Assembly (NCBI GenBank): GCA_944332525.1
Contig: CALVKD010000022.1
Span: forward strand, 2,392-66,391
Reading direction: 5' to 3'
Origin: an uncultured Bacilli bacterium
Lineage (GTDB): Bacteria; Bacillota_I; Bacilli_A; RFN20; CAG-449
DNA length: 64,000 nucleotides
The notes beneath the pieces are model-generated. The model worked only from the letters and a program-made list of their open reading frames with translations, was not told the origin of the DNA and searched no databases. Both the position numbers and the translations under genes were made by a program. Positions within the stretch are counted from its first letter, which is position 1; each line of letters opens with the position of its first letter. This document shows positions 14,526-58,146 of the stretch, piece after piece.

Positions 14526-16370
14526 TTAGAATCTTCTTAATAGTTTTTTTATGAATTGCTTAGATAATGTAAAATCTTCTTTTGAATAAGTTTTGTTAAT
14601 TAAATCAAGTAAGTCTTCTAAACCTTGTTCGACATAGTCTTCAAAGCGTCCATCGAGTTTATTTAAGATTTTACGGCAGAGCATAAAATCAAGAGCGTCT
14701 TCTTTTCTTCCTCCAGCAGCAACAAAAACTGGGGTGAACAGAATAATTTGGTTGAGAATACGGTTACCAAATGTTACATCAAATGTCTCATAGATATAAT
14801 CTGTAAGGATTTTAAATTTTGCTAAATCATCTTTTGATAATTGATAATCTTCGTTATTTTGAGCTTCAGAGAATAAAGACTGCAATTTGCTATAGGAGAG
14901 AGTGATTTTCTCTGTTTCTCCTTCTACTGGGAAATAATCATTTTGCTCATTAAAGGAAATAGTGATAGCCCGGTCATAGACTTTATCAGTGATGGTATAA
15001 GTCGAGTCATCTTTATTAGCAGTTCCGATAAAATAAGTTGTCGGAGCGATATCGAGAATTCCATTTTCTAAATGATCTGGTGCAGTAAAATTAAACGGCA
15101 AGTTCATGATTTTTAATTTCCATTGATCAATAGGATATTCAAGAATTGATAAGAAATCAGCAAAGTAATATTCAACGCGCGAGATATTCATTTCATCAAG
15201 AACCATGATATTGATATGGTTATCTCTATAAGTAGCTTGATATAAACGCTTTAAGAATTCTGTTTCATTATAAGATTTAGAGAAATCATTATAGTAACCT
15301 AATAATGATGTTCTATCTCTCCATGTTGCTTGTACTGGAGTAAAGAAAGACTCTTCGCTGATAAATTCTGAGAAATATCTCGCTAATGAAGATTTACCGG
15401 TTCCTGATAAACCTTCAAGAATGATTAATCTTGAGGCTGATAAAGCTGAAATAAAGCAGCGGATAGTATTGATATCAAAATAGAGTTTTTCTTCTTTAGC
15501 TAAATAATTTCTAAATTTGGTAACTAAGTCAGGTAAGGTAATATCATCATTAAATTCTTCATTTTGATATGTTGCTAAGACATCAATTTCACATAGAGAA
15601 GGGAAAACCTTTTCTTTAGTGAGTTCTTCATTATCGGATATAGGTGAAGCAACAGCTTGGTTAACTAAGGATGAATTATTAACTGAAGCTGCAGAAGAAG
15701 GTGAAACTTCACCAAAAGTTTCTGCTAGATGACCTTGTTTAACTTGGTCATTGAGTTCTTTTTCTTCTTGTTTCCTTTCTTCGCTTTCTTGCTCTTTTGT
15801 TTCTTTATTGAAGAAGCGGAAAGGTTTATCAATTGATTTTAAATTGATAACTAGCATTGCTGCGAATAAAACAATTGAGCCGAGAATAATGAAAATAATT
15901 AATCCGACAAATAAGGATTCTAGAACGAATAAAAAGGAATTTCCAACATATTCCCAGTTAACCGGAATATGAGCGATAATGCCAATTACTGACGCTAAAA
16001 TAAGGCAGATAAAGAATGTTGCAACATAAATGCCTATCCATTTTAATGATGCAGCTTTTTCTTCATAATATTTAGCTAAACGCATTTCATAGATAAATGC
16101 CGCGGCAAATAGTAATGAATAAACGATTACCATGCTAAATAAAATATATGTACCAAATGAGGCATCAATGCTCGGTAAGGATAATATTTTTCCTAGCATC
16201 TGAATTGGATTATCTTCTTTCATTAAGCCTTTTGCGTCTAGACATAATCCTGAAAATACAGTGACTAGTAAATAGAAATAAACTATCGCTAGAGCAATAA
16301 AGTTTTTTCTTGTGAAATGTGTTTTAAATCTCGGTTTTTCCATGTTTATTTCCTCCATCTCCATAAGCAC
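14526..16370 (-). CDS. Membrane-anchored McrB-family AAA+ GTPase/ATPase (4 N-terminal TM helices, charged linker, C-terminal AAA_5/McrB-like domain)
   Basis: GTG start (ORF-track M). Four hydrophobic helices in the first ~180 aa, then an E/K-rich linker. Walker A ILEGLSGTGKSSLA. Walker B MVLDEMNISR resembles McrB DEINRAN. IGTANKDDS resembles the McrB NTAD motif MNTADRS. Confidence 0.55.
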   Translation of the reverse strand: MLMEMEEINMEKPRFKTHFTRKNFIALAIVYFYLLVTVFSGLCLDAKGLMKEDNPIQMLGKILSLPSIDASFGTYILFSMVIVYSLLFAAAFIYEMRLAKYYEEKAASLKWIGIYVATFFICLILASVIGIIAHIPVNWEYVGNSFLFVLESLFVGLIIFIILGSIVLFAAMLVINLKSIDKPFRFFNKETKEQESEERKQEEKELNDQVKQGHLAETFGEVSPSSAASVNNSSLVNQAVASPISDNEELTKEKVFPSLCEIDVLATYQNEEFNDDITLPDLVTKFRNYLAKEEKLYFDINTIRCFISALSASRLIILEGLSGTGKSSLARYFSEFISEESFFTPVQATWRDRTSLLGYYNDFSKSYNETEFLKRLYQATYRDNHINIMVLDEMNISRVEYYFADFLSILEYPIDQWKLKIMNLPFNFTAPDHLENGILDIAPTTYFIGTANKDDSTYTITDKVYDRAITISFNEQNDYFPVEGETEKITLSYSKLQSLFSEAQNNEDYQLSKDDLAKFKILTDYIYETFDVTFGNRILNQIILFTPVFVAAGGRKEDALDFMLCRKILNKLDGRFEDYVEQGLEDLLDLINKTYSKEDFTLSKQFIKKLLRRF

Positions 16371-39658: not shown

Positions 39659-39676
39659 GTTGAAGAAATGTTCAAC
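39659..39676 (+). promoter_or_regulatory. Perfect inverted repeat GTTGAA-N6-TTCAAC between the promoter and RBS of adhE; candidate Rex-like redox-repressor operator
   Basis: 18-bp palindrome. Rex boxes (TTGTGAA-N4-TTCACAA) commonly sit at this position in front of adhE in Firmicutes. Spacing here is 6-6-6. Confidence 0.35.
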
Positions 39677-39692
39677 AATTAAGGAGTCCCAA

Positions 39693-42323
39693 ATGGAAGA
39701 AAAAGTAATTACCCCACAAGAAGAAGTTGATTCGTTAGTTAAAAAGGCTCTTAAGTGCCTTGATGAATATGCTTCATTCACCCAGGAGCAAATCGATTAT
39801 ATCGTTGCTAAAGCTTCAGTTGCCGCGCTTGATCATCATGGCAGCTTAGCTAAATTAGCTATTGAAGAAACTAAAAGAGGCGTTTTTGAAGATAAGGCAA
39901 CTAAAAACTTATTTGCATGTGAATATGTCGTTAATAATATGAGACATTTAAAAACTGTCGGTATTATCGATGATGATGAAGTTACAGGAATTGTTAAAGT
40001 CGCTGAACCAGTCGGTGTAGTCGCAGCTTTAACTCCGGTTACTAATCCAACATCTACAGCAATTTTTAAATCTCTTATCTGCTTAAAAACTAGAAACCCA
40101 GTCATTTTCTCTTTCCACCCAAATGCTAAGCAATCATCAATTGCTGCTGCGAAAGTTGTCTATGATGCCGCGGTTGCAGCGGGAGCACCAAAAAACTGCA
40201 TTCAATGGATTGAAAATATTTCAATGGAAGCAACTAATTGCTTAATGAACCACCCTGGTGTTGCAACAATTTTAGCTACTGGTGGTAATGCGATGGTTAA
40301 AGCTGCTTATTCTTGCGGTAAACCAGCATTAGGCGTTGGAGCCGGTAATGTTCCTGCTTATATGGAAAAAACTTGTAATGTTAAACAAGCAGTAAATGAT
40401 ATCGTTTTATCTAAATCATTTGATAACGGTATGGTCTGCGCTTCTGAACAAGCTGTTATTATCGATAATGATATTTATGATGCAGCATTAAAAGAATTTG
40501 AATCTTTCGGTTGCTATCTCTGCAATGAAAAAGAAAAGAAGATGCTCGAAAAATTTATGTTCGGTGTCGCAAGCAAAGAAGATTGTCCAAAAGCTAAATT
40601 ATATGCTCCATTAGTTGGTCAATCAGCAAAATGGATTGCTGAGCAAGCTGGATTTGAAGTTCCAGATAAAACTGTCATCTTACTTGTTAAATGCTCACAA
40701 GTCGGTGTCAACGAACCTCTCACTAGAGAAAAATTATCACCAGTCTTAGCTGTTCTTAAATCAAAAGATAGCGAAGAAGGAATTAAACTTGCTAAGCAAA
40801 TGGTTGAATTCAACGGCTTAGGTCACTCAGCAGCTATCCATACTACTAATAAAGAATTAGTTGAACATTTCGGTGATGTTATTCCGGCAATTAGAATTAT
40901 TTGGAATTCCCCATCAACATTCGGCGGAATCGGTAATGTTTATAACTCATTCTTACCTAGCTTAACCTTAGGATGCGGTTCGTATGGCCATAATTCAATT
41001 GGCGACAATGTTTCCGCGGTTAATTTACTCAATATTAAAAAGATCGGACGGAGAAGAAACAATATGCAATGGTTCAAAATTCCTAGCAAAATCTATTTTG
41101 AAAGAGATGCCATTGAGTATCTCCATCAGATGAAAGAAATGAAGAAAGTAATGATCGTTACCGATAGAAGCATGGTCGATTTAGGCTATGTTGATAGAGT
41201 TACCGATCAACTTAAACAAAGAAGAGAAGAAGTTCAATATCAATTATTCTGCGATGTTGAACCAGATCCATCAATTCAAACTGTTTTAAGCGGTGTTAAA
41301 TTGATGCGTTCATTTGAACCGGATACCATTATCGCTTTAGGCGGTGGATCGGCAATGGATGCCGCGAAAGGTATGTGGCTCTACTATGAGCATCCAGAAG
41401 TTAATTTTAATGACTTAAAGCAAAAATTTATGGATATTAGAAAGAGAGCTTTCCGTTATCCAGAATTAGGTAAAAAAGCCAAATTAGTCTGTATTCCTAC
41501 AACTTCCGGAACTGGTTCAGAAGTTACACCGTTTGCGGTTATCACAGATAAAACTGAAAATAAAAAATATCCATTAACCGACTACTCATTAACTCCAACA
41601 ATTGCGATTATTGATCCTTCTTTAACTTTATCTCTTCCAAAGAAGATTACCGCAGATACTGGTATGGATGTCTTAACTCATGCTACCGAAGCTTTCGTTT
41701 CGACATTAGCTAACGATTATACTGATGGATTAGCTATTCAAGCAGTTAAAATGGTCTTTAAATATCTTGAAAGATCATATAATAATGGCGCGAATGACCC
41801 AGAAGCTAGAGAAAAAATGCATAATGCTTCAACTTTAGCTGGTATGGCATTTGCTAACGCTTTCCTTGGCATGAACCATTCTATGGCTCATAAAATCGGT
41901 GGTGAATTCCACGTTCCACACGGCAGAGCTAACGCAATCTTATTACCATTTACTATTCGCTATAATGGAACAAAACCACAAAAATTATCAACTTGGCCAA
42001 AGTATAACTTCTATAAAGCTGATGAACGCTATGCTGAATTAGCTGCAGCAATCGGCTTAAAATTCAATACTGTCGCTGAAGGTGTTGAAGCTTACGCTAA
42101 AGCTGTCGGCGAACTCGGTATGAGATTAGGAATTAAGATGAATTTCCAATCACAAGGTATTGATAGAGAAGCTTGGATGAATGCAATGGACAAATTAGCT
42201 TATCTCGCTTATGAAGATCAATGCTCACCAGCTAACCCACGCGTACCGATGGTTGAAGACATGAAGAAAATCATGATCGCGGCTTACGATTCTCAAGAAT
42301 TCATCGCTCCTGAAAATAAATAA
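39693..42323 (+). CDS. adhE: Bifunctional acetaldehyde-CoA / alcohol dehydrogenase AdhE
   Basis: N-terminal aldehyde dehydrogenase domain and C-terminal iron-containing ADH domain (GGGSAMDAAK, metal-binding His motifs). ORF-track start 39660 is TTG; the ATG at 39693 has an AAGGAG RBS. Confidence 0.95.
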   Translation: MEEKVITPQEEVDSLVKKALKCLDEYASFTQEQIDYIVAKASVAALDHHGSLAKLAIEETKRGVFEDKATKNLFACEYVVNNMRHLKTVGIIDDDEVTGIVKVAEPVGVVAALTPVTNPTSTAIFKSLICLKTRNPVIFSFHPNAKQSSIAAAKVVYDAAVAAGAPKNCIQWIENISMEATNCLMNHPGVATILATGGNAMVKAAYSCGKPALGVGAGNVPAYMEKTCNVKQAVNDIVLSKSFDNGMVCASEQAVIIDNDIYDAALKEFESFGCYLCNEKEKKMLEKFMFGVASKEDCPKAKLYAPLVGQSAKWIAEQAGFEVPDKTVILLVKCSQVGVNEPLTREKLSPVLAVLKSKDSEEGIKLAKQMVEFNGLGHSAAIHTTNKELVEHFGDVIPAIRIIWNSPSTFGGIGNVYNSFLPSLTLGCGSYGHNSIGDNVSAVNLLNIKKIGRRRNNMQWFKIPSKIYFERDAIEYLHQMKEMKKVMIVTDRSMVDLGYVDRVTDQLKQRREEVQYQLFCDVEPDPSIQTVLSGVKLMRSFEPDTIIALGGGSAMDAAKGMWLYYEHPEVNFNDLKQKFMDIRKRAFRYPELGKKAKLVCIPTTSGTGSEVTPFAVITDKTENKKYPLTDYSLTPTIAIIDPSLTLSLPKKITADTGMDVLTHATEAFVSTLANDYTDGLAIQAVKMVFKYLERSYNNGANDPEAREKMHNASTLAGMAFANAFLGMNHSMAHKIGGEFHVPHGRANAILLPFTIRYNGTKPQKLSTWPKYNFYKADERYAELAAAIGLKFNTVAEGVEAYAKAVGELGMRLGIKMNFQSQGIDREAWMNAMDKLAYLAYEDQCSPANPRVPMVEDMKKIMIAAYDSQEFIAPENK

Positions 42324-43388: not shown

Positions 43389-43414
43389 TATCTGGCTTAG
43401 GCCAGATTTTTTTG
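43389..43414 (+). terminator. Rho-independent terminator
   Basis: ATCTGGC-TTAG-GCCAGAT followed by TTTTTTT. Confidence 0.7.
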
Positions 43415-43551
43415 TTGCTTAAAAAACATATATCTCACACTTTGGCAATAATTATATATAATTATTTTTCGATTTGCCCCATTTTGTTATAGATTATCAT
43501 TTTGTCTCATTGTAAAATATAGCCGTAATAAAACAGAAGGGATTTTTTATT

Positions 43552-44124
43552 ATGGAAGAATTTATTATCGAAACAAGTGCTAGACATGTTCATGTCACAC
43601 AAGAAACCTTAGAAGTCCTCTTCGGCAAGGGAGCGGAGTTAACTGTCAAAAAGATGCTTTCGCAACCTGGTCAATTCGCTTCTGAACAAAAGGTCGAGGT
43701 CATCGGACCTAAAGGAACACTTAAGTGCTCAATTCTCGGACCTTGCAGAAACGTCAATCAAGTTGAACTCTCTCTCACCGATGCGAGAACTTTAGGTATC
43801 GCAGTTCCTGTTAGAGAATCAGGAGATGTTAAGGGCTCAACAGCGATTACTATCAAAGGACCTTGCGGCGAAGTCGCTTTAACAGAAGGTGCTATCGCTG
43901 CTAAACGCCATATTCACATGACTCCAGCAGATGCTGAAAGATTCAATGTCAAAAATGGCGATATCGTTAATGTTAAAGTCGTTAACGAGACTGGTAGAGG
44001 CTTGATCTTTGGTGATACAGTCATCAGAGTCAGCGATAAATATGCTTTAGCAATGCATATCGATACCGACGAAGCTAATGCAGGTGCATTATCTGGCTTA
44101 GTAAAAGGTATCATTGTTAAATAA
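43552..44124 (+). CDS. pduL: Phosphate propanoyl/acetyl-transferase PduL
   Basis: Two PduL repeats, with N-terminal IETSARHVHV and later AAKRHIHMT. Confidence 0.8.
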   Translation: MEEFIIETSARHVHVTQETLEVLFGKGAELTVKKMLSQPGQFASEQKVEVIGPKGTLKCSILGPCRNVNQVELSLTDARTLGIAVPVRESGDVKGSTAITIKGPCGEVALTEGAIAAKRHIHMTPADAERFNVKNGDIVNVKVVNETGRGLIFGDTVIRVSDKYALAMHIDTDEANAGALSGLVKGIIVK

Positions 44125-44135
44125 GAGGAGAAGAT

Positions 44136-45509
44136 ATGTCATTATTTAAATCAGAAGGATGCAAGCATCTGACTGGAATCAATGACACCAAACACTTAAC
44201 CTCAGAAAAAGAGATTTTGACTCTCCCTGATGAATACAGCAAGGAAGTCTATGTACCTCTTGTCGATCCAGGTAAAGGATTACCAATTAATGTTGAAGCT
44301 AAAGTTGGCGATCACGTTAAAGTTGGTACCTTAATTGGAACGAGAAATATGTTTGGTAACTTGATTCCAATTTATTCACCGGTTTCCGGTGTCATCAAAG
44401 GTGAAGAAAATATTCTTCACGGCGGACTTGGCAGAATGGCCAAGCATTACGTTATCGAAAACGATTTCAAGTATGAAAATGTCAAAGTCTGTGAACCATT
44501 TTCATTAGAATCTGATGCCGATACAATTATCGATGCTATGCAGAAACTTGGATTAGTCGGTCTCGGCGGAGCTGGTTTCCCAACATTCATCAAATATAAA
44601 GGCGTTAAAGATATCGATACTATTATTATCAATGGTGTCGAATGTGAACCATTCTTAACTACCGACTACAACGCAATGATTAAAGAAAGCGAAGAATTAT
44701 TCCTCGGTGCCTCTTTAATGATGAAAGCTGCACATGCTCAAAGAGCTTTAATTTGCTTTAAGCAAAACAAAGTTAGAGTCTATGAGGCTTTGAAAGATAA
44801 AGTCCATGAGTATCCAGGCCTTGAACTTAAATTAGTTCCAGATGTCTATCCGATGGGCTGGGAAAAACTTCTCTGCAAGACAGTTACTGGTAGAACTTAT
44901 GAAAAATTACCAGCAGAAGCTCACGTAATTATCAATAACGCTCAAACAGCAATTGAATTAGCTAAGTCGTCTAAGACTGGCTTTATTACAAGAAGCAAAA
45001 TGCTTACAGTTACCGGTGAAGGCCTTAAAGAAAACGCTAATGTTATAGTGCCAATCGGAACAAAGGTTAGTGAAATTGTTCGTTTCATGGGTGGGTATAC
45101 CATCGATGAAGGTGTCGTTTTATTAGGCGGACCAATGTGTTCAAGAGGCTTGATGAACGATAACTGCGCAATCCTTCCTCAAAACGATGCTATCACCGTT
45201 TTAAGAAAGTTAAAGAGAAGAACTCAACAATGCTTAAGATGCGGTGCTTGTACAGATCATTGCCCAACTAACTTACAGCCAGTTGAGATTAAAATCGCAT
45301 ATGAACACAAAGACATGGATAGAATGATGGCTTTGAAACCAACAGTCTGTATCGGCTGCGGATTATGTTCTTATGTTTGCCCAAGTCAAATTGAAGTCAA
45401 TGATTTCGTTAAGAAAGCTAAGGCTTTAGTTATGATGGAAGAAACAAAACGCAAAGCCGCTGAAGCTAAAAAGGCCGAAGCAGCAAAACCTCAAGGAGGA
45501 AAACAATAA
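44136..45509 (+). CDS. rnfC: Rnf electron-transport complex subunit C
   Basis: NADH-binding GLVGLGGAGFPT. Two 4Fe-4S motifs, CLRCGACTDHCP and CIGCGLCSYVCP. Confidence 0.9.
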   Translation: MSLFKSEGCKHLTGINDTKHLTSEKEILTLPDEYSKEVYVPLVDPGKGLPINVEAKVGDHVKVGTLIGTRNMFGNLIPIYSPVSGVIKGEENILHGGLGRMAKHYVIENDFKYENVKVCEPFSLESDADTIIDAMQKLGLVGLGGAGFPTFIKYKGVKDIDTIIINGVECEPFLTTDYNAMIKESEELFLGASLMMKAAHAQRALICFKQNKVRVYEALKDKVHEYPGLELKLVPDVYPMGWEKLLCKTVTGRTYEKLPAEAHVIINNAQTAIELAKSSKTGFITRSKMLTVTGEGLKENANVIVPIGTKVSEIVRFMGGYTIDEGVVLLGGPMCSRGLMNDNCAILPQNDAITVLRKLKRRTQQCLRCGACTDHCPTNLQPVEIKIAYEHKDMDRMMALKPTVCIGCGLCSYVCPSQIEVNDFVKKAKALVMMEETKRKAAEAKKAEAAKPQGGKQ

Positions 45510-47452
45510 TGAAATTCGGAATGAATCCGGGTCCATATTATCGTTCAAACAGATCAACTACTCATATTATGATGGAGTTGATGATCGGTTTGGCTGTAAT
45601 TTGGCTCAGTGCGATCGTCTTCTACTTCATGCAAAGCAGCGCTAATGGTGTCTTAGCTATCGTTAATCCGATAATCGCTATGGTTACCGCTGTTGTTGTC
45701 GAAGCTCTCTTCATGCTTCCAAAGACGATTAAAGAAAAGAGAAATTTCAAAGATTTACTCGATGATGTATTTCATTCTTATGGATATGTCAGCGGAATGA
45801 TCTTAGCTTTAATTTTACCGGTTGCAACTTCTTGGTATGCAATCGTCGTTTCTACAATTATCGGTGTTGGCGTCGCTAAGATGCTCTTCGGCGGATTTGG
45901 TCACAACATCTTTAACCCAGCAATCGTTGGAAGAATCATTTGCCAAACTTGTTTCTTAGATAAGATGGCTTATGATGCTGAAATCACAACCGGTGCAACT
46001 ATTACTACAGCTATGGGCAGTAATGGTTGGTCACTTGATTTACTCAATACCGGTCACATTTCCTTTATTGATCTCTTATTTGGTAACTACCGCGGTGCTT
46101 TAGGTGAAACATTTACTATTATCTTATTAATAGTCGGTATCGTTTTAGTTATTAGAAAAGTTATTGATTGGAGAGCTCCAGTATTCTACTTAGCAACCAT
46201 TTATGTCGCAACCTTTATCATGGGTCTCTGCGGCGGATATGGTGTTGATAGCTTTGAATATGCTTTAGTCCAAGTTGCTTTAGGTGGCGTTATGTTCGGC
46301 GCAGTTTTCTGCTTAACTGACCCAGTTACTTCACCTACTTCAAGAGCTGGCCGCGTTTTCTTCGGTATGGGTGCTGCTTTAATTACTATGTTAATTAGAT
46401 ACTGCGCTTCTGCTCCTGAAGGCGTTGCTTATTCAATTCTCTTTATGAATCTTTTCACACCGCTTATTGATTTAGCAGTTAAGGGATTAAGTAAAGAAAA
46501 TACTAGAAGAAATATCATTACAACATCCGTTATGGGTGCAGTCGCTATTGTTGGCGGACTTTATTTAGGCTTCACCAAGATTGATAAGATGGGCTTCTTC
46601 AACTATGAATACTCATTTGCTGATAAAACCGGTGAATTCACTGCAACTATCAACTATGCTGGCGAAAAAGACGGAATTGAAAGCTATGACGTCTCTGTTA
46701 CCGGTTATGTCGCAACAAACACTGAACATAATTTCGGTGATGTCAGAACAGTTTTCGCAGGCGCTCTTGCTAAATACGAAAACGGAACTGAATATCCAAA
46801 TTATCAATTCGTTGTCAATGATAATGGTACATCCCTGGATTTAACTTATGAGAAGGATGATGCTGAACAAATTATCGAAGGTGTTCTAAAATTAAAAACT
46901 GATAACACTAACGATACTTATACAATTGTTGATTCAGTTTCTGGATACTATCTTCCAACTGATGTTTCCACAGAAGAAGCTGTTTACTCATTAGAAATTG
47001 CAGATGATTATTCTATCATCCTTACTATGGCTGATGGACATACTTCACAAGATAACAATTCCATGTCTTATGCTTCTATGAGCTTCACCATTGATATTGA
47101 TTATGAAAATAAAGTCGTAGTTGCAACACACTTAAAATCTACAGGCGCTGGTGGTGGATACGGCGATGCAATGCTTGATTTTGAAAATACGCCATATGCT
47201 CCTTATTTAAGTGATGAGGCTGCCATGAAGTTATTAAACTTCTATGCTACCTACGTTAATATTACTACACCTGTCCCATTCTCTACTTACGAAAAATACA
47301 ACACACAGACTGCATTGATTGATACAGTTAATAGCGATTTACATGTCGGTGCAACTTATACTGCTAACGGCTTTATGTATATGATGAACCGCGTTATTGA
47401 ATACGCTCAATATTATCATCAATCATTATCAGCCGGAAAGGTGGTAAGATAA
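45509..47452 (+). CDS. rnfD: Rnf subunit D fused to a ~300-aa C-terminal extracytoplasmic extension
   Basis: NqrB/RnfD core with NPAIVGR and the flavinylation-site-like DAEITTGATITT. After the last TM helix (about residue 355) comes a soluble domain of unknown family (YSFADKTGEFTATINYAG...). Confidence 0.8.
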   Translation: MKFGMNPGPYYRSNRSTTHIMMELMIGLAVIWLSAIVFYFMQSSANGVLAIVNPIIAMVTAVVVEALFMLPKTIKEKRNFKDLLDDVFHSYGYVSGMILALILPVATSWYAIVVSTIIGVGVAKMLFGGFGHNIFNPAIVGRIICQTCFLDKMAYDAEITTGATITTAMGSNGWSLDLLNTGHISFIDLLFGNYRGALGETFTIILLIVGIVLVIRKVIDWRAPVFYLATIYVATFIMGLCGGYGVDSFEYALVQVALGGVMFGAVFCLTDPVTSPTSRAGRVFFGMGAALITMLIRYCASAPEGVAYSILFMNLFTPLIDLAVKGLSKENTRRNIITTSVMGAVAIVGGLYLGFTKIDKMGFFNYEYSFADKTGEFTATINYAGEKDGIESYDVSVTGYVATNTEHNFGDVRTVFAGALAKYENGTEYPNYQFVVNDNGTSLDLTYEKDDAEQIIEGVLKLKTDNTNDTYTIVDSVSGYYLPTDVSTEEAVYSLEIADDYSIILTMADGHTSQDNNSMSYASMSFTIDIDYENKVVVATHLKSTGAGGGYGDAMLDFENTPYAPYLSDEAAMKLLNFYATYVNITTPVPFSTYEKYNTQTALIDTVNSDLHVGATYTANGFMYMMNRVIEYAQYYHQSLSAGKVVR

Positions 47453-47454
47453 TT

Positions 47455-48405
47455 ATGAATAAATTAGTAAAGATGCCTTTATTCTTAGGTGTTACCTGCC
47501 TCGTCTGCGGCGGATTACTTGCAGGTATCGTCGCTTTGACTGATCCGGTTATTGAAAAGAATGAACAAGAACGCTTATCAGCAGCATTCAGAACTATGTA
47601 TGATGATGAAAGCGCACTTGTTACTAAGACCATCGTTATCAATGAAGAAGGTAATCCAATTTCTGAAATTAACGATGTCACTCATACTGGAGGAGAATCA
47701 GCTGTTTATAAAGTTACTTCTTCTTCCTCTTATGAAAGAATGACTTTCTACGTTGGTATCTCTAGAGAGAATAATACTGTTGATGCTTATTATTCTTTAT
47801 CAAGTACCGCTTCTTCTCTTGGATATGGCAACTTCCAAAACTCTGCTAATATATCCAATCTTTATCAAGGATATGATGGAACAGGAACAGTTATCGTTAC
47901 CGGTACTACGGTTACTTCAAAAGCAGTGAAAGTTGCAGTTGATGCTTGCTTAGATGATTACGCTGTTAGATATTTAGGTGAAGGCGGAAATCAAGGTGAA
48001 ACATTGGCTTTCTATCAAGAAATGTATGGAGAAAGTGCTGTATTAAAAGCTGAAGCTTCAATCAATGAAGGTGGAATCTTAAATGGATATCTCGTTGAAT
48101 ATGAAGAAGCAACTCACTACATTTATAAGTTATCAATTACTGTTGATGGAACAACTACTACATATTATGTAGGTATGGACAATGCTGGACGTGGTGAGGT
48201 ATATAAATATATTAGTTGTACTAATCTTGATACTTGGTCATTCTTCTATCTTCATAATGATGAGAAGATTACAGAAGGTATCAAGGGTAAATTCCATGGC
48301 ACTTTCGAAATCGCTCCATCAAGCGAAGAAGTAAATACCGCTTTCAATGAAGTCTATACTTTCGCTTTGCAAGATCTTGCTATGCGCGACTGGGAGGTAA
48401 AGTAA
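47455..48405 (+). CDS. rnfG: Rnf subunit G (FMN-binding), unusually long at 316 aa
   Basis: N-terminal TM anchor. FMN_bind-like VIVTGTTVTSKAVKVAVDA in place of SGATxTS. Operon position between rnfD and rnfE. Confidence 0.75.
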   Translation: MNKLVKMPLFLGVTCLVCGGLLAGIVALTDPVIEKNEQERLSAAFRTMYDDESALVTKTIVINEEGNPISEINDVTHTGGESAVYKVTSSSSYERMTFYVGISRENNTVDAYYSLSSTASSLGYGNFQNSANISNLYQGYDGTGTVIVTGTTVTSKAVKVAVDACLDDYAVRYLGEGGNQGETLAFYQEMYGESAVLKAEASINEGGILNGYLVEYEEATHYIYKLSITVDGTTTTYYVGMDNAGRGEVYKYISCTNLDTWSFFYLHNDEKITEGIKGKFHGTFEIAPSSEEVNTAFNEVYTFALQDLAMRDWEVK

Positions 48406-48406
48406 A

Positions 48407-49081
48407 ATGAAAGAAACAAAAACAAGTTTACGCCAGGCCTTCACTAATCCGATTTTTAAAGAAAATCCGATTCTCGTGACATTATTAGGTCTTTGCCCGG
48501 TTTTAATCGTTACTGATACATTTGATAAATCTTGGGGTATGGGAATTGCTGTCTTATTAGTTCTTATTTTCACTAATATCTTCATTTCTCTTATTCGTAA
48601 GATTGTTCCTAATGAAGTTAGAATTCCGGTATTTATCGTTATCATCGCTTGCTTTGTTACTATTGTTGAGCGCTTGATGAATGCTTATACTCCTACATTA
48701 TATTCTTCCTTAGGTGTTATTATTTCGATGATTACCGTTAACTGTATCGTCCTCGGACGCGGCGAAGCATTCGCTAGCAAAAACGGTGTTCTTCCTTCTC
48801 TTCTCGATGCTATCGGTACTGGAATTGGCTTCTTCTTAGCTGTTTCCGTTATCGGTTTAGTTAGAGAATTCTTAGGCAAAGGTGGATTGACTATTTCTAA
48901 TCCTTTCACCGGAGTCGCTATTTTCTCAGCTTATCCATTAGAAGATTATGCTATTTCCTTCCTCTGCGATAAGGGCGGAGCATTCTTAATGCTTGGCTTA
49001 GCAGTCGGTATCTATTCTTACGTCAGAATTAAACTTGATGAAAGAAAAGAAAAGGAAGCTGCTCAAGTGGAGGTTAAATAA
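48407..49081 (+). CDS. rnfE: Rnf subunit E
   Basis: NqrD/RnfE-type 6-TM protein. Conserved LGLCP and TVNCIVLGR. Confidence 0.85.
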   Translation: MKETKTSLRQAFTNPIFKENPILVTLLGLCPVLIVTDTFDKSWGMGIAVLLVLIFTNIFISLIRKIVPNEVRIPVFIVIIACFVTIVERLMNAYTPTLYSSLGVIISMITVNCIVLGRGEAFASKNGVLPSLLDAIGTGIGFFLAVSVIGLVREFLGKGGLTISNPFTGVAIFSAYPLEDYAISFLCDKGGAFLMLGLAVGIYSYVRIKLDERKEKEAAQVEVK

Positions 49082-49083
49082 TT

Positions 49084-49716
49084 ATGGAAATTATTACCAG
49101 TTTATTAGTGGTCTTCATCACAGCGATGATTACCAATAACATCGTCCTTACTACCGGATATGGTATCTGCTCCTATATCGGTGTTTCCAAAAACAGAAAA
49201 TCGGCATTCGGCATGGGTGTCGCTTTAGTCTTTGTCGTCTTCATGGCGAGCTTAGTCTCTTATTTCTTAGAGATGCTCTTAGTAGCTTTGAATATTGAAT
49301 TTATGCAGACCATCTGCTTTATCTTAGTCATCGCTTCTTTAGTTCAACTCGTTGAAATGATCGTTAAGAAATTCTTACCTTCACTTTATAAGAGCTTAGG
49401 TATCTACTTACCATTGATTACTACTAACTGTGTTGTCTTATACGTCACAAAACAAATTTGCGATGTTGAGACAATTCTCACCGGATTAGGTTTATCTGGC
49501 AGCTTAGCAAACAATGGCTTCTTCAATTTCCTCTTCGCGATGGTTTATGCCTTAGGCACAGGCTTAGGATATTTCGTCTGTATCGTCTTATTCTCAACCA
49601 TCAGAACTAAAATCGATTATTCACCGGTTAAGAGAGGTTTCTATGGTGCCGGTATCGCTTTAGTTACAACTGCTTTAATGGCTCTTACTATCACAGGCTT
49701 AGCAGGAATTTTCTAG
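49084..49716 (+). CDS. rnfA: Rnf subunit A
   Basis: NqrE/RnfA-type. ITTNCVVL motif. Paralogous to rnfE. Confidence 0.85.
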   Translation: MEIITSLLVVFITAMITNNIVLTTGYGICSYIGVSKNRKSAFGMGVALVFVVFMASLVSYFLEMLLVALNIEFMQTICFILVIASLVQLVEMIVKKFLPSLYKSLGIYLPLITTNCVVLYVTKQICDVETILTGLGLSGSLANNGFFNFLFAMVYALGTGLGYFVCIVLFSTIRTKIDYSPVKRGFYGAGIALVTTALMALTITGLAGIF

Positions 49717-49717
49717 A

Positions 49718-49903
49718 ATGCGATATCTCTACATTCTGTTAGTGCTCATCGTTTTCGTTGGAGTCTTTTGCTTAATCTGGTATCTTAATTCTCGGACTAA
49801 GAAACCAGATGATTGCGGAGAACTTCCAGAAGAATGCCAGCACTGCAGTGTTACTATCTGTAAGAATCATCCTAAAGATCAGAAAACGGAGGAAAAGAAA
49901 TGA
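49718..49903 (+). CDS. 61-aa single-TM protein with Cys-rich tail (C-x5-C-x2-C-x4-C) inserted between rnfA and rnfB
   Basis: MRYLYILLVLIVFVGVFCLIWY TM helix, then DCGELPEECQHCSVTIC. 4-nt overlap (ATGA) with the rnfB-like gene. Confidence 0.45.
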   Translation: MRYLYILLVLIVFVGVFCLIWYLNSRTKKPDDCGELPEECQHCSVTICKNHPKDQKTEEKK

Positions 49904-50184
49904 TTTACGTTTACGCATGTATCGTTGTCGTTGTCGCCGGAATTATCTTAGGTTTAGCCTTAGGCTTAGCCGACAAATATTTAAAGATTGAAGAAGATCC
50001 ACGTAAAGACGACATTACAGCATTGCTTCCAGGTGCTAACTGCGGAGCATGTGGCTATCCTGGCTGCTCGGGTTTAGCCGAAGCTATGGTCGAGGGAAAA
50101 TCTACTAAAGCTAGCGACTGCAAAGTCATTAAAGGTGACAAGCAAAAAGCTTTACAAGATTATCTCGACAATATGAAGAAATAA
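49900..50184 (+). CDS. rnfB: Minimal RnfB: N-terminal TM helix plus RnfB-type 4Fe-4S domain only (94 aa), lacking ferredoxin domains
   Basis: TM helix, then NCGACGYPGCSGLAEAMVEGKSTKASDC (C-x2-C-x4-C-x15-C), as in the RnfB N-terminal Fe-S domain. The protein ends after this domain. Confidence 0.65.
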   Translation: MIYVYACIVVVVAGIILGLALGLADKYLKIEEDPRKDDITALLPGANCGACGYPGCSGLAEAMVEGKSTKASDCKVIKGDKQKALQDYLDNMKK

Positions 50185-50187
50185 ATT

Positions 50188-50430
50188 ATGGTGTTAGAAT
50201 ATACACCTAAGGGTACTTGCTCAAGAAAGTTTATTATTGAGCACGATGGGCAAAAAGTACTCTCTTTGCAAGTTATCGGGGGCTGCAATGGCAATTTAAA
50301 AGGCATTGCTGCTCTCGTTAAGGGCATGGAGATTAAAGAAGCTATTAGCCGCTTAGACGGTATTAAATGTGGCTTTAAAGATACATCATGTCCTGACCAA
50401 TTAGCCCAAGCATTAAAAAACTTACTATAG
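50188..50430 (+). CDS. TSCPD-domain small protein
   Basis: C-terminal DTSCPDQLAQAL signature. 80 aa. Confidence 0.6.
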   Translation: MVLEYTPKGTCSRKFIIEHDGQKVLSLQVIGGCNGNLKGIAALVKGMEIKEAISRLDGIKCGFKDTSCPDQLAQALKNLL

Positions 50431-50444
50431 AAAGGTATCTGTTC

Positions 50445-56348: not shown

Positions 56349-56406
56349 AATGCGCTTTTCTTTGCATTTATTTAAATTTTTTAATAATATTTTAAAAGGT
56401 GAGAAT

Positions 56407-58146
56407 ATGAAAAAACTTAAATTATCTTTTTTGTTAGTCGCATTAGGAACTTTGTCAGCATGTCAGGGCAACAATCCTTTTAATCCAAGCAATAATGAAT
56501 CCTGGTATTCAAATACTATTAAAACGCAGATTATCGGTATGTCAGGCGATCCAGTTCAACCTTTTGATAAAGAAACTAACAGTATGCTTAATCAATTAGA
56601 CGCGGTCATTTCGCCTTTTGATACGACTATTTCCGTGATTCGTTATCAAAATAATCAAAATTTTTCGGATATTACTTCGTTAGTTAGAAATAATTTTAGC
56701 GAATTACATGCTTATTTTGATTCGCATTACGATTATAAAATTAATGGAAATTTAATTAATAATCTCAAAACTATCAATGATCATTATGGCGATGGAGAAT
56801 TTATTGAAGTTAACGATGATTTATATTCAATTTTACAGACTGCAGTTGAAGTTACTGAAGTAGCGGATGGCTATTATAATGTCGGTATCGGTGCACTTTC
56901 TGATCTTTGGAAAGAATATATTAATTATAATAAAGGCAATACTTCTTCTGCTCGTCCGATTTATCGTAAGCTCTATACGAGTGCCTTTATGATGGAAACA
57001 TTATTTAATTACGATATTACATATGCTGATGAAGAAAAAGGAATTTATGAAGCAATTCTTTTATTAGTTACTGATTCAAGTACTTTTGAAGACAGCCAAA
57101 ACTTAGCTTATCATCTAAAATTTATTAACGGTGAAGAAGAAGCTGATATTCTTTTAGGATTTAATAACCAATTAAAAATTAATGCTTATACTTTATTAAA
57201 CGGTGATGAGCTTACTTCTTTAGCAAATTTAAAAGAAAATGCAGTTAGCAGCCAAATTAAGAATTTTACTAAAGGAAGCAATTTAACAATTTTTGGTGAC
57301 AGCAATCTCGATTCTAAGTTCACTCAATTTTTAGATAACGTAATTAATGATGCTTCTGCGCGTCTAGAAAAGACGAAAAAAGGTATGGTTCCAACTGCTA
57401 GTGAAGTAGCGACCGCTAAATCAGCTGTTCCATCTGGAAAAGAAATTTCTTCAATTGTTGAATTTAAAGAAGAAAATAATAAAAAGTATGTCAGATTAAA
57501 CAAATTAGAAGGCGCAGAACAAGATGTGAGATTATCGCTTGGTTCTATCGGTAAAGGTTATGCTGTTAAGAAAATGCAAGAAAAACTTGATCCAAACGGA
57601 ATCGCTTATGTTAATGGCGGTGATTCTTCAGTTTCGACAATTAACGATAATATGTTTGGTGCATGGAGATTAGCCATTACCAATCCGTTACATGGTGAAG
57701 CGATAAATCAAGGCGATAAAGTAACTGCTCAGAAATATAATTCAGCAGAAATGCGTTTAAGCCGTCAGGGAAGCTTCTCTTTCTCAACGTCAGGCGATTA
57801 TGTTAACTGCTATTTTGATAGCGAAGGGCAGCGTTATCATCACATCATCAACCCAGTTACCGGTTATCCTTCAAATACTTTCCGGACAGTTTCCGTCGTT
57901 TGCTCAGATTCAACTTTTGCTGATGCTATTACCACTGGATTAATGGCGATGACCATGGATGAAGGTAAAGAATTTATTAAAAATTTACGTTCTCAGTACT
58001 CTTTAACTATTTATCCGATTTGGACAGTTCAAGATGGTGCTAGCTTAAAAGTTTATGCGGATAAAACCCTTGAAGGACAATTAAAAGTTGATCGCGGACA
58101 GGAAACACAGAATATTGTTACTAGTTTAGAGTTTATTGAGGTATAA
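56407..58146 (+). CDS. apbE: Lipoprotein FAD:protein FMN transferase (ApbE family) with ~300-aa N-terminal extension
   Basis: Lipobox LSACQG. C-terminal ApbE domain (SLGSIGKGYAV, DxxHHIINP region). The ATG at 56407 with RBS AAAGGTGAG is preferred; the ORF-track start 56350 overlaps the hpf terminator. Confidence 0.75.
   Translation: MKKLKLSFLLVALGTLSACQGNNPFNPSNNESWYSNTIKTQIIGMSGDPVQPFDKETNSMLNQLDAVISPFDTTISVIRYQNNQNFSDITSLVRNNFSELHAYFDSHYDYKINGNLINNLKTINDHYGDGEFIEVNDDLYSILQTAVEVTEVADGYYNVGIGALSDLWKEYINYNKGNTSSARPIYRKLYTSAFMMETLFNYDITYADEEKGIYEAILLLVTDSSTFEDSQNLAYHLKFINGEEEADILLGFNNQLKINAYTLLNGDELTSLANLKENAVSSQIKNFTKGSNLTIFGDSNLDSKFTQFLDNVINDASARLEKTKKGMVPTASEVATAKSAVPSGKEISSIVEFKEENNKKYVRLNKLEGAEQDVRLSLGSIGKGYAVKKMQEKLDPNGIAYVNGGDSSVSTINDNMFGAWRLAITNPLHGEAINQGDKVTAQKYNSAEMRLSRQGSFSFSTSGDYVNCYFDSEGQRYHHIINPVTGYPSNTFRTVSVVCSDSTFADAITTGLMAMTMDEGKEFIKNLRSQYSLTIYPIWTVQDGASLKVYADKTLEGQLKVDRGQETQNIVTSLEFIEV

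Follow-up and report, generated by a model that had tools for sequence, protein, structure and literature searches.

A short RnfB with a single predicted iron-sulfur domain, and an adjoining cysteine-rich micro-protein, in Rnf operons of Bacilli

The electron-input side of the Rnf complex has been described for forms of RnfB with several iron-sulfur clusters. In Acetobacterium woodii, RnfB begins with a transmembrane helix (TM1), followed by a highly mobile 'B8 domain' (residues 30-100) that holds the terminal [4Fe-4S] cluster. This domain enters between RnfA and RnfE, 15-17 Å from the intramembrane [2Fe-2S] cluster, and a cysteine mutation in it abolishes activity (PMC11889175). Clusters B1-B7 make up the ferredoxin-binding core, and other isoforms have three to six clusters (PMC11889175). 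Likewise, a 2025 review presents RnfB's C-terminal domain, with two to seven clusters, as the ferredoxin acceptor (PMC12174285). Described RnfBs carry 3-8 clusters, and structural work takes this multi-cluster protein as the ferredoxin-binding module (PMC11889175, PMC12174285). Here we describe an rnf operon of an uncultured Bacilli bacterium whose rnfB encodes only 94 amino acids. We analysed 64 kb of this genome (the window, meaning the whole stretch of DNA) and read its relatives at ±8-10 kb around their rnf loci.

The short rnfB (49900-50184, plus strand) encodes a transmembrane helix and one predicted [4Fe-4S] domain with Cys48, Cys51, Cys56 and Cys74. Its sole Pfam match is PF04060 'FeS', with 50.4 bits against a cut-off of 23. 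The protein covers just the first ~75-85 positions of the NCBIfam models for RnfB/RsxB. Its score with TIGR01944 (58.8) stays under the cut-off of 68.7 because the ferredoxin part is absent. Beyond residue 74 there is no CxxCxxCxxxC(P) motif, and the six frames of the window contain no ferredoxin-type CxxCxxCxxxCP motifs except two in RnfC. An RnfB cut back to its N-terminal Fe-S domain, without ferredoxin-type domains, had been proposed by a first-pass annotation made from the sequence alone, and the single Pfam match and the lack of ferredoxin motifs agree with it. That annotation read the x2 and x4 gaps between the cysteines correctly, but the last gap is x17 and not x15 (C48-x2-C51-x4-C56-x17-C74).

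Comparison with solved structures gives the limits of the protein. The short-RnfB profile aligns to residues 4-89 of Clostridium tetanomorphum RnfB (7zc6_B, 274 aa), 5-89 of A. woodii RnfB (9eri_B, 333 aa) and 1-83 of Azotobacter vinelandii RnfB (8ahx_B, 174 aa). A weaker alignment is to the cluster domain at the N-terminus of corrinoid Fe-S proteins (CFeSP). The AlphaFold2 (AF2) model has a predicted local distance difference test score (pLDDT) of 88, with a transmembrane helix at residues 2-27 (pLDDT 90-95) and three short helices. In a fold search with this model, the best PDB folds were 9eri_B and the CFeSP N-terminal cluster domain. By profile and model, the short RnfB corresponds to TM1 and the mobile B8 domain of the solved RnfBs, and to nothing more. 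It therefore falls outside the described range of 3-8 clusters.

The likeness to canonical RnfB/RsxB (eight clusters in 9eri_B, six in 7zc6_B, three in 8ahx_B) includes the N-terminal transmembrane helix and the four-cysteine B8 domain of PF04060, which is ~35% identical over ~85 residues. Both are also encoded by the terminal gene of an rnfCDGEAB-type operon. However, the short RnfB stops where the B8 domain ends. The 2-7 ferredoxin-type clusters, which form the ferredoxin-docking core and the contact with RnfC, are absent. The N-terminal [4Fe-4S] domain of the CFeSP large subunit (AcsC/CdhE; 4djd_C, 2ycl_A, 9fzy_F) has the PF04060 fold and cysteine motif too. It superposes on the soluble part of the short RnfB with a root-mean-square deviation of 1.2-2.2 Å over 50-57 residues. 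Nevertheless, it is a soluble part of a large corrinoid protein, with no transmembrane anchor and no Rnf context.

The short form is shared by a family. RnfB proteins of 89-109 aa fill the rnfB slot of rnfCDGEA-B operons in Erysipelotrichaceae, Izemoplasma, Anaeroplasmataceae and other Bacilli. In a database search, the RnfB relatives at least 42% identical to the query were 90-109 aa long. They come from Bacilli, Anaerorhabdus and Bacillota, and their source labels read 'electron transporter RnfB' or '(Fe-S)-binding protein'. Ten positions are invariant in the alignment (L43, P44, C48, G49, C51, G52, G55, C56, A60 and C74). In every operon examined, the short rnfB is the last gene of rnfCDGEA-(peptide)-B, where the peptide is the micro-protein described below. 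The comparison with rnfB of related genomes, suggested by the first-pass annotation as a check, shows the short form kept in length, sequence and slot across at least 25 species-level genomes.

The same annotation had allowed for a sequencing frameshift or a pseudogene remnant. This is ruled out. Independent assemblies hold the identical 94-aa sequence in 188 indexed blocks, so a frameshift in sequencing does not explain it, and the identical operon lies on six contigs of 58-75 kb. Besides the conserved family alignment, the gene is under purifying selection. Between the window and two relatives (RnfB 67-71% identical), the ratio of non-synonymous to synonymous differences per site (pN/pS) is ~0.2-0.3, with pN ~0.2 and synonymous sites saturated. 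Selection at the coding level is seen for all three small genes, namely the peptide gene, rnfB and the following TSCPD gene. We found no relic ferredoxin coding sequence downstream of the short rnfB. With just 3 nt between the rnfB stop and the TSCPD start, a decayed ferredoxin domain would not fit there. Rather than a pseudogene, the short RnfB is a genuine subunit, stably maintained under selection.

A related explanation takes the short rnfB for a decayed or auxiliary copy and places a functional ferredoxin-accepting RnfB, or a separate polyferredoxin, elsewhere in the genome. We find this quite improbable. The sequence read amounts to the 64 kb of this genome and the flanks of its relatives, which leaves such a gene a place, and at one short-RnfB locus (L017) a 60-aa 2x[4Fe-4S] ferredoxin is encoded 6.5 kb from the operon (14795-14977, minus strand). 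Apart from this exception, no conserved ferredoxin-motif gene other than rnfC lies within ±8 kb of the short-RnfB operons, and a nearby polyferredoxin acting in trans was rejected on this ground. The short form is moreover conserved in the species-level genomes and in many metagenomic clusters, always in the canonical rnfB slot. The purifying selection and the lack of a relic downstream also speak against a decayed copy.

Directly upstream of the short rnfB there is an unannotated gene (49718-49903, plus strand) for a micro-protein of 61 aa. It has a single N-terminal transmembrane helix and a tail with Cys33, Cys40, Cys43 and Cys48. Its stop and the rnfB start share the sequence ATGA, an overlap of 4 nt, and the GGAGGA Shine-Dalgarno of rnfB sits within the peptide gene. 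A new reading of the open reading frames (ORFs) confirmed the three that the first-pass annotation had described here, with their overlap: the 61-aa peptide with transmembrane helix and cysteines, the 94-aa RnfB and the 80-aa TSCPD protein. In the peptide, the x2 and x4 cysteine gaps were as stated there, whereas the first gap is x6 instead of x5 (C33-x6-C40-x2-C43-x4-C48).

We scanned the GTDB species representatives with the short-RnfB alignment and classed the resulting 80 loci by scripted ORF analysis. Short RnfBs (25 loci) have 44-59 residues from the first cluster cysteine to the stop and zero ferredoxin motifs. Full-length RnfBs (53 loci) have 1-5 ferredoxin motifs, and two loci are cut by contig ends. 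In 23 of the 25 short-RnfB species, but in none of the 53 full-length species, rnfA and rnfB have an ORF for a peptide of 50-100 aa directly between them (Fisher p = 9e-18, with shared ancestry ignored). With a stricter regular expression, the full-length loci gave one stray match, on the opposite strand and far from rnfB. Conversely, all three loci picked by peptide similarity alone (Traorella massiliensis, an Anaeroplasmataceae metagenome-assembled genome (MAG) and a member without Cys33) carry the peptide between rnfA and a 101-106-aa RnfB with PF04060 only. The stop of the peptide gene overlaps or abuts the start of rnfB in each lineage examined. Gene rnfC is present in all loci that reach far enough upstream.

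The short-RnfB genomes are labelled Erysipelotrichaceae, Massilimicrobiota, Stoquefichus, Anaerorhabdus, Holdemanella and Solobacterium, and also Onthovivens, Anaeroplasmataceae, Izemoplasma, Mycoplasmatota and unclassified Bacilli. A few MAGs are labelled Fusobacteriales, Clostridiaceae, Defluviitaleaceae, Brevinematales and a Methanomethylophilaceae bin, these labels being given as binned.

The peptides form a family with a clear signature. In alignments of 25 and 61 members, N24, P30, C40, C43 and C48 are invariant and C33 is present in >90%. T27 is invariant in the 61-member alignment. The N-terminal transmembrane helix is followed by [YF]-x-L-N-[KH]-[KR]-T-P-x-P-x-G-C-E...C-x2-C-x4-C. A profile search returned 588 clusters at 90% identity. 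Among the matches listed, the lengths are 52-76 aa, Pfam domains are absent and the source names given all read 'hypothetical protein'. An exhaustive search of 1.84 billion representatives with a hidden Markov model gave 409 members (50% identity clusters), all small, with lengths of 49-126 aa. The few longer members are either adapter chimeras or peptides with a charged tail. Two such 'long' members (P0348 and P0335) carry a translated Nextera adapter (MCIRDR / DVYKRQ) ahead of a normal peptide C-terminus and are assembly artefacts in public data. Among the best 150 of the 409 family representatives, there is no fusion of peptide and RnfB.

A minority of the peptides (L020, L028, P0189 and P0318) lack Cys33 and keep C-x2-C-x4-C. 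They often have a histidine beside a cysteine (e.g. THCHGC, CKSCH). From these sequences, a three-cysteine site is possible, or a histidine or another residue as fourth ligand.

The gene callers passed over the peptide in six of six assemblies of the window's species (L001-L006, 9819-10004). The exact peptide is recorded on only 4 contigs, against the 188 blocks for the adjoining RnfB. The family is systematically under-annotated. The skipped gene calls, together with two short-RnfB lineages that lack the ORF, are what could be said for a chance ORF or a non-functional leader, in which case the short RnfB would take electrons straight from ferredoxin or flavodoxin. We consider this extremely improbable, since there are hundreds of homologues with an invariant asparagine, proline and three cysteines. 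The gene has a pN/pS of ~0.3 with saturated synonymous sites, a fixed position and a confident transmembrane helix in the AF2 model.

This helix spans residues 2-26 at pLDDT >90, and the cysteine tail has a pLDDT of 53-57. A low-confidence, unstructured tail is what would be expected in the model if folding requires a metal or a partner. The basic residues that follow the helix suggest, by the positive-inside rule, an N-out, C-in orientation with the cysteine tail in the cytoplasm. The tail would then lie on the same side of the membrane as the cluster domain of RnfB.

No solved structural relative of the peptide was found. The only recurrent Pfam match is PF12669, the FeoB-associated cysteine-rich membrane protein, in 8 of 25 members (best E = 0.002). 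This family is likewise small, with a single transmembrane helix and a cysteine-rich tail. Nevertheless, the peptide scores are all under the gathering threshold (18.4 vs 27 bits) and the N-x2-T-x2-P...C-x2-C-x4-C signature is foreign to PF12669. There is no feoB near the peptide, whose gene lies between rnfA and rnfB wherever it is present in the examined loci. A second candidate was a degenerate paralogue of the RnfB N-terminus, with an hhalign probability of 90-93% and C-x2-C-x4-C in register. When the soluble columns were shuffled and the transmembrane helix was kept, the score was 31.5 ± 1.6 against a real 30.5, and 185 of 200 shuffles reached the real score. The soluble part alone gave a probability of 5% (E = 0.007). 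We rejected this match as an artefact of the transmembrane helix; all that remains of the comparison is the identical C-x2-C-x4-C spacing in both proteins.

With these results, we propose that the locus encodes a complete Rnf complex (ferredoxin:NAD+ oxidoreductase type) with a lineage-specific, minimal electron-input side, in which the micro-protein is a stoichiometric, metal-binding partner of RnfB. We regard this proposal as evenly balanced between right and wrong. RnfB is pared to its membrane anchor and the B8 domain, whose cluster in canonical enzymes is the final one ahead of the intramembrane [2Fe-2S] of RnfA/E, and the chain of 2-7 further clusters that normally docks ferredoxin is missing. 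The micro-protein would stand beside the short RnfB in the membrane, with its cysteine tail holding a metal or Fe-S centre at the cytoplasmic face. The tail and the B8 domain would together form the point at which electrons are handed over directly by reduced ferredoxin or flavodoxin. With only the B8 cluster on the input side, the donor must reduce B8 directly or through whatever centre the micro-protein may hold. Related organisms possess pyruvate:ferredoxin oxidoreductase and hydrogenases (PMC11122141), so ferredoxin is most likely the donor.

From there on, the path would be canonical: RnfA/E [2Fe-2S], RnfG FMN, RnfD flavins, RnfC and NAD+. We expect this because the cysteines of RnfA/E, the TGAT motif of RnfD, the FMN/NADH domain and two clusters of RnfC, and ApbE are present. 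The reading of the peptide as a stoichiometric subunit is favoured by the translational coupling, the exclusive association with a truncated RnfB and the conserved juxtamembrane motif. Gene content, domain limits, family-wide conservation, the co-occurrence of peptide and short RnfB and the coding selection are seen in the sequences; cofactor binding, the physical association of the peptide with RnfB, the nature of the donor and the route of the electrons are inferred. The first-pass annotation had suggested that small proteins supply the docking function in trans. For the peptide, its adjacency to short RnfB (23/25 vs 0/53) makes an in-trans role a reasonable hypothesis, whereas the TSCPD protein, named along with it, is limited to one clade.

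In the main rival reading, the peptide is an assembly factor and not a subunit. NqrM, a small membrane-anchored protein with four cysteines, has a role in cluster insertion in the Na+-NQR, where it is required for maturation of the intramembrane Fe-S centre, and nqrM follows apbE at the end of its operon (PMC12174285). As a functional analogue of NqrM, the micro-protein would deliver Fe or Fe-S to the [2Fe-2S] of RnfA/E or to the RnfB cluster, and it would have become necessary, as in NQR, after RnfB lost its polyferredoxin part. The two proteins are alike in several respects. NqrM (PF04400, DUF539) is also a protein of ~60-80 aa with one N-terminal transmembrane helix, a basic juxtamembrane segment, and a first cysteine near residue 33 after a glycine, followed by a tight group of three cysteines. 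In real NqrM sequences (64-84 aa), we observed the juxtamembrane 'RKT', Gly-(Ser)-Cys33 and C33-x11-C45-x-C47-x3-C51. The peptides (50-75 aa) have 'NHKTP', Gly-Cys33 and C40-x2-C43-x4-C48. Both are encoded within operons of homologous pumps, and NQR, which requires a small cysteine protein too, shares with the short-RnfB Rnf the lack of a polyferredoxin RnfB.

However, no homology was demonstrated. None of the 25 peptide members matches PF04400 even at E <= 10. In the NqrM set used for comparison, 67 of 67 strong matches carry PF04400. With hhalign, the full peptide scored 29.0 against NqrM, compared with 22.2 ± 3.4 for shuffles, of which 11 of 150 reached the real score. With the soluble part only, 32 of 150 shuffles did so. 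The profile match is limited to the transmembrane and juxtamembrane segment, and we rejected the peptide as a remote NqrM homologue. The cysteine spacing differs (C-x11-C-x-C-x3-C in NqrM, C-x6-11-C-x2-C-x4-C in the peptides), and so do the taxa, which are Proteobacteria for NqrM and Bacilli with Mollicutes-like lineages for the peptide. While nqrM stands at the operon end, the peptide gene is wedged against rnfB, and its start/stop coupling suggests matched stoichiometry. Finally, Cys33 is reportedly the essential cysteine of NqrM, as Kostyrko et al. are said to have found in 2016, whereas the first cysteine is dispensable in some peptides. Considering both sides, an assembly factor is possible but rather unlikely.

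Several observations weigh against the peptide as a stoichiometric, metal-binding partner of RnfB. Its architecture, by analogy, resembles the assembly factor NqrM equally well. Two short-RnfB operons, L017 (7409-8291; a Bacilli faecal MAG) and L087 (7381-8300; a Brevinematales MAG), have no peptide ORF anywhere in ±8 kb, and their rnfA and rnfB abut (2 nt and 14 nt). Therefore, the peptide is not obligatory for a one-cluster RnfB, and these two loci are left unexplained by the subunit and the assembly-factor readings alike. Cys33 is absent from L020, L028 and P0189. The co-occurrence is confounded by phylogeny, a single broad lineage of Bacilli accounting for most of the short-RnfB genomes. 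Metal binding and the contact with RnfB are inferred, and the AF2 model gives the cysteine tail the low pLDDT stated above. A second, full-length rnfB elsewhere in these genomes, beyond the 64 kb and the flanks read, is possible.

A broader and more tentative proposal, which we place somewhat short of even, is that the micro-protein is a seventh component of a class of Rnf found in Erysipelotrichaceae, Izemoplasma, Anaeroplasma and related gut and sediment Bacilli. With a metal or Fe-S centre of its own, it would replace the polyferredoxin antenna and serve, together with the one-cluster RnfB, as the entry for ferredoxin or flavodoxin. Alternatively, within the same proposal, it would be a convergent counterpart of NqrM. 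If that were true, each RNF/NQR pump without a polyferredoxin RnfB would need a dedicated small cysteine protein for its intramembrane cluster.

We found no description of a one-cluster RnfB or of the cysteine peptide in the literature searched. It is a known system (Rnf) in a new form, with a new small protein family attached. Database records name the genes RnfB and 'hypothetical protein', and genome papers on related organisms give an ordinary rnfCDGEAB operon. For example, the RNF genes listed for Peloplasma aerotolerans are MDI6452236-38, 40-41 and 43 (PMC11122141). The list leaves out number 42, which falls between the presumed rnfA and rnfB and probably stands for the micro-protein, and number 39, which may stand for a further gene missing from it.

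A widespread natural Rnf that retains just the terminal mobile cluster would mean that the polyferredoxin antenna can be dispensed with. The one-cluster RnfB defines the minimal input module for mechanistic and cryo-EM work and leads one to ask in what way ferredoxin or flavodoxin docks. With the micro-protein family, a major energy-conserving enzyme of anaerobes gains a new component, be it a subunit or an assembly factor. Among the lineages are bacteria common in the gut of humans and animals (Holdemanella, Solobacterium, Massilimicrobiota, Traorella), and metabolic reconstructions that report 'rnfCDGEAB present' may miss this functional difference.

The gene that follows rnfB (50188-50430, plus strand) encodes an 80-aa protein with cysteines at 11, 33, 61 and 68. 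It is a full-length member of the small four-cysteine family TIGR03905/TSCPD (PF12637 with 95.6 bits vs 22.8; TIGR03905 with 108.2 vs 67.7). We found no papers on this family and no solved relatives of it. A role of the TSCPD protein, by itself or jointly with the peptide, in the missing ferredoxin-docking or redox function is suggested by the 3-nt gap from rnfB, the four conserved cysteines, the purifying selection, and its conserved place beside rnfB in the window's clade (RnfB at least 67% identical; the relatives at 67-71%). There is also no terminator-like site between the two genes, and TSCPD is probably co-transcribed with rnf. Outside this clade, rnfB has no TSCPD gene after it in any of the more distant short-RnfB species (25 of 25), nor at four other loci (L007, L095, L097 and L098). 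Within the clade, gene order is collinear over the entire region (AAA kinase, PduL, rnf, TSCPD, metK, FAD protein, purA, purB, hpf). As the unrelated genes metK, purA, purB and hpf are equally syntenic, the adjacency of TSCPD and rnfB is little informative. We therefore consider such a function highly improbable. TSCPD looks like a bystander kept by clade-specific synteny and not a conserved part of the Rnf module, so the partnership with Rnf proposed in the first-pass annotation did not hold, and no general link between TSCPD and Rnf was found in the loci examined.

Gene metK starts 14 nt after the TSCPD stop (gap 50431-50444). An Rfam scan of the window gave no family and no S-adenosylmethionine (SAM) riboswitch, so the rnf/TSCPD transcript may extend into metK.

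The rest of the Rnf complex is encoded upstream of the short rnfB, with rnfC, D, G, E and A all present on the plus strand. Gene rnfA (49084-49716; 210 aa) matches PF02508 and TIGR01943 (E = 3e-53), and rnfE (48407-49081; 224 aa) matches PF02508 and NF009070 (228.6 bits). RnfA has its cysteine pair in GICSY and TTNCVV, and RnfE in LGLCP and TVNCIV. By their sequence, these cysteines would ligate the intramembrane [2Fe-2S] cluster. RnfC (44136-45509; 457 aa) has an NADH/FMN domain and the two [4Fe-4S] motifs, with 288.8 bits in TIGR01945 against a cut-off of 246.

RnfD (45509-47452; 647 aa) matches PF03116 over residues 6-324 (E = 1.3e-72), and its core (residues 1-325) carries the flavinylation-type motif TGAT. 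The core is followed by a further hydrophobic segment and by ~290 aa that match nothing in Pfam (an extension of ~320 aa, residues ~326-647). It holds 'VGATYT', reminiscent of flavinylation motifs, and is conserved in the clade, where RnfD has 670 aa (L091) and 658 aa (L093). In Traorella massiliensis (L095), FMN_bind domains are fused to RnfD and RnfE, so this lineage seems to have multi-flavin variants of Rnf.

The gene at the rnfG position (47455-48405; 316 aa) encodes a divergent, extended FMN-binding subunit, assigned by operon position, with weak matches to FMN_bind (19.2 bits, under the threshold of 22) and TIGR01947. Its usual SGAT motif reads TGTT. The closest relatives, L091 and L093, have 188 and 179 aa at this position.

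An ApbE-family flavin transferase (56350-58146, plus strand; 598 aa) is encoded 6 kb downstream of the rnf row and, from its family, would flavinylate RnfD and RnfG. It is unusually long: the PF02424 domain (E = 5.9e-42) covers residues 299-548, and the N-terminal ~290 aa lie outside it. In L003, a LytTR two-component pair replaces the ApbE gene.

The small ORFs close a tightly packed, co-oriented row, PduL-rnfC-rnfD-rnfG-rnfE-rnfA-peptide-rnfB-TSCPD. The PduL-type phosphate acyltransferase (43552-44124, plus strand; PF06130, E = 1.7e-75) ends 11 nt upstream of the rnfC start, and the transcription unit probably begins with it. Ahead of it there are a terminator-like site (43390-43407) and a promoter-like site (43434-43462), both of them pattern-level matches only. 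PduL is kept upstream of rnfC in the clade, and an aldehyde/alcohol dehydrogenase gene, AdhE, lies just upstream (39660-42323). Together, PduL and AdhE may link Rnf to acyl-CoA and ethanol redox balancing.

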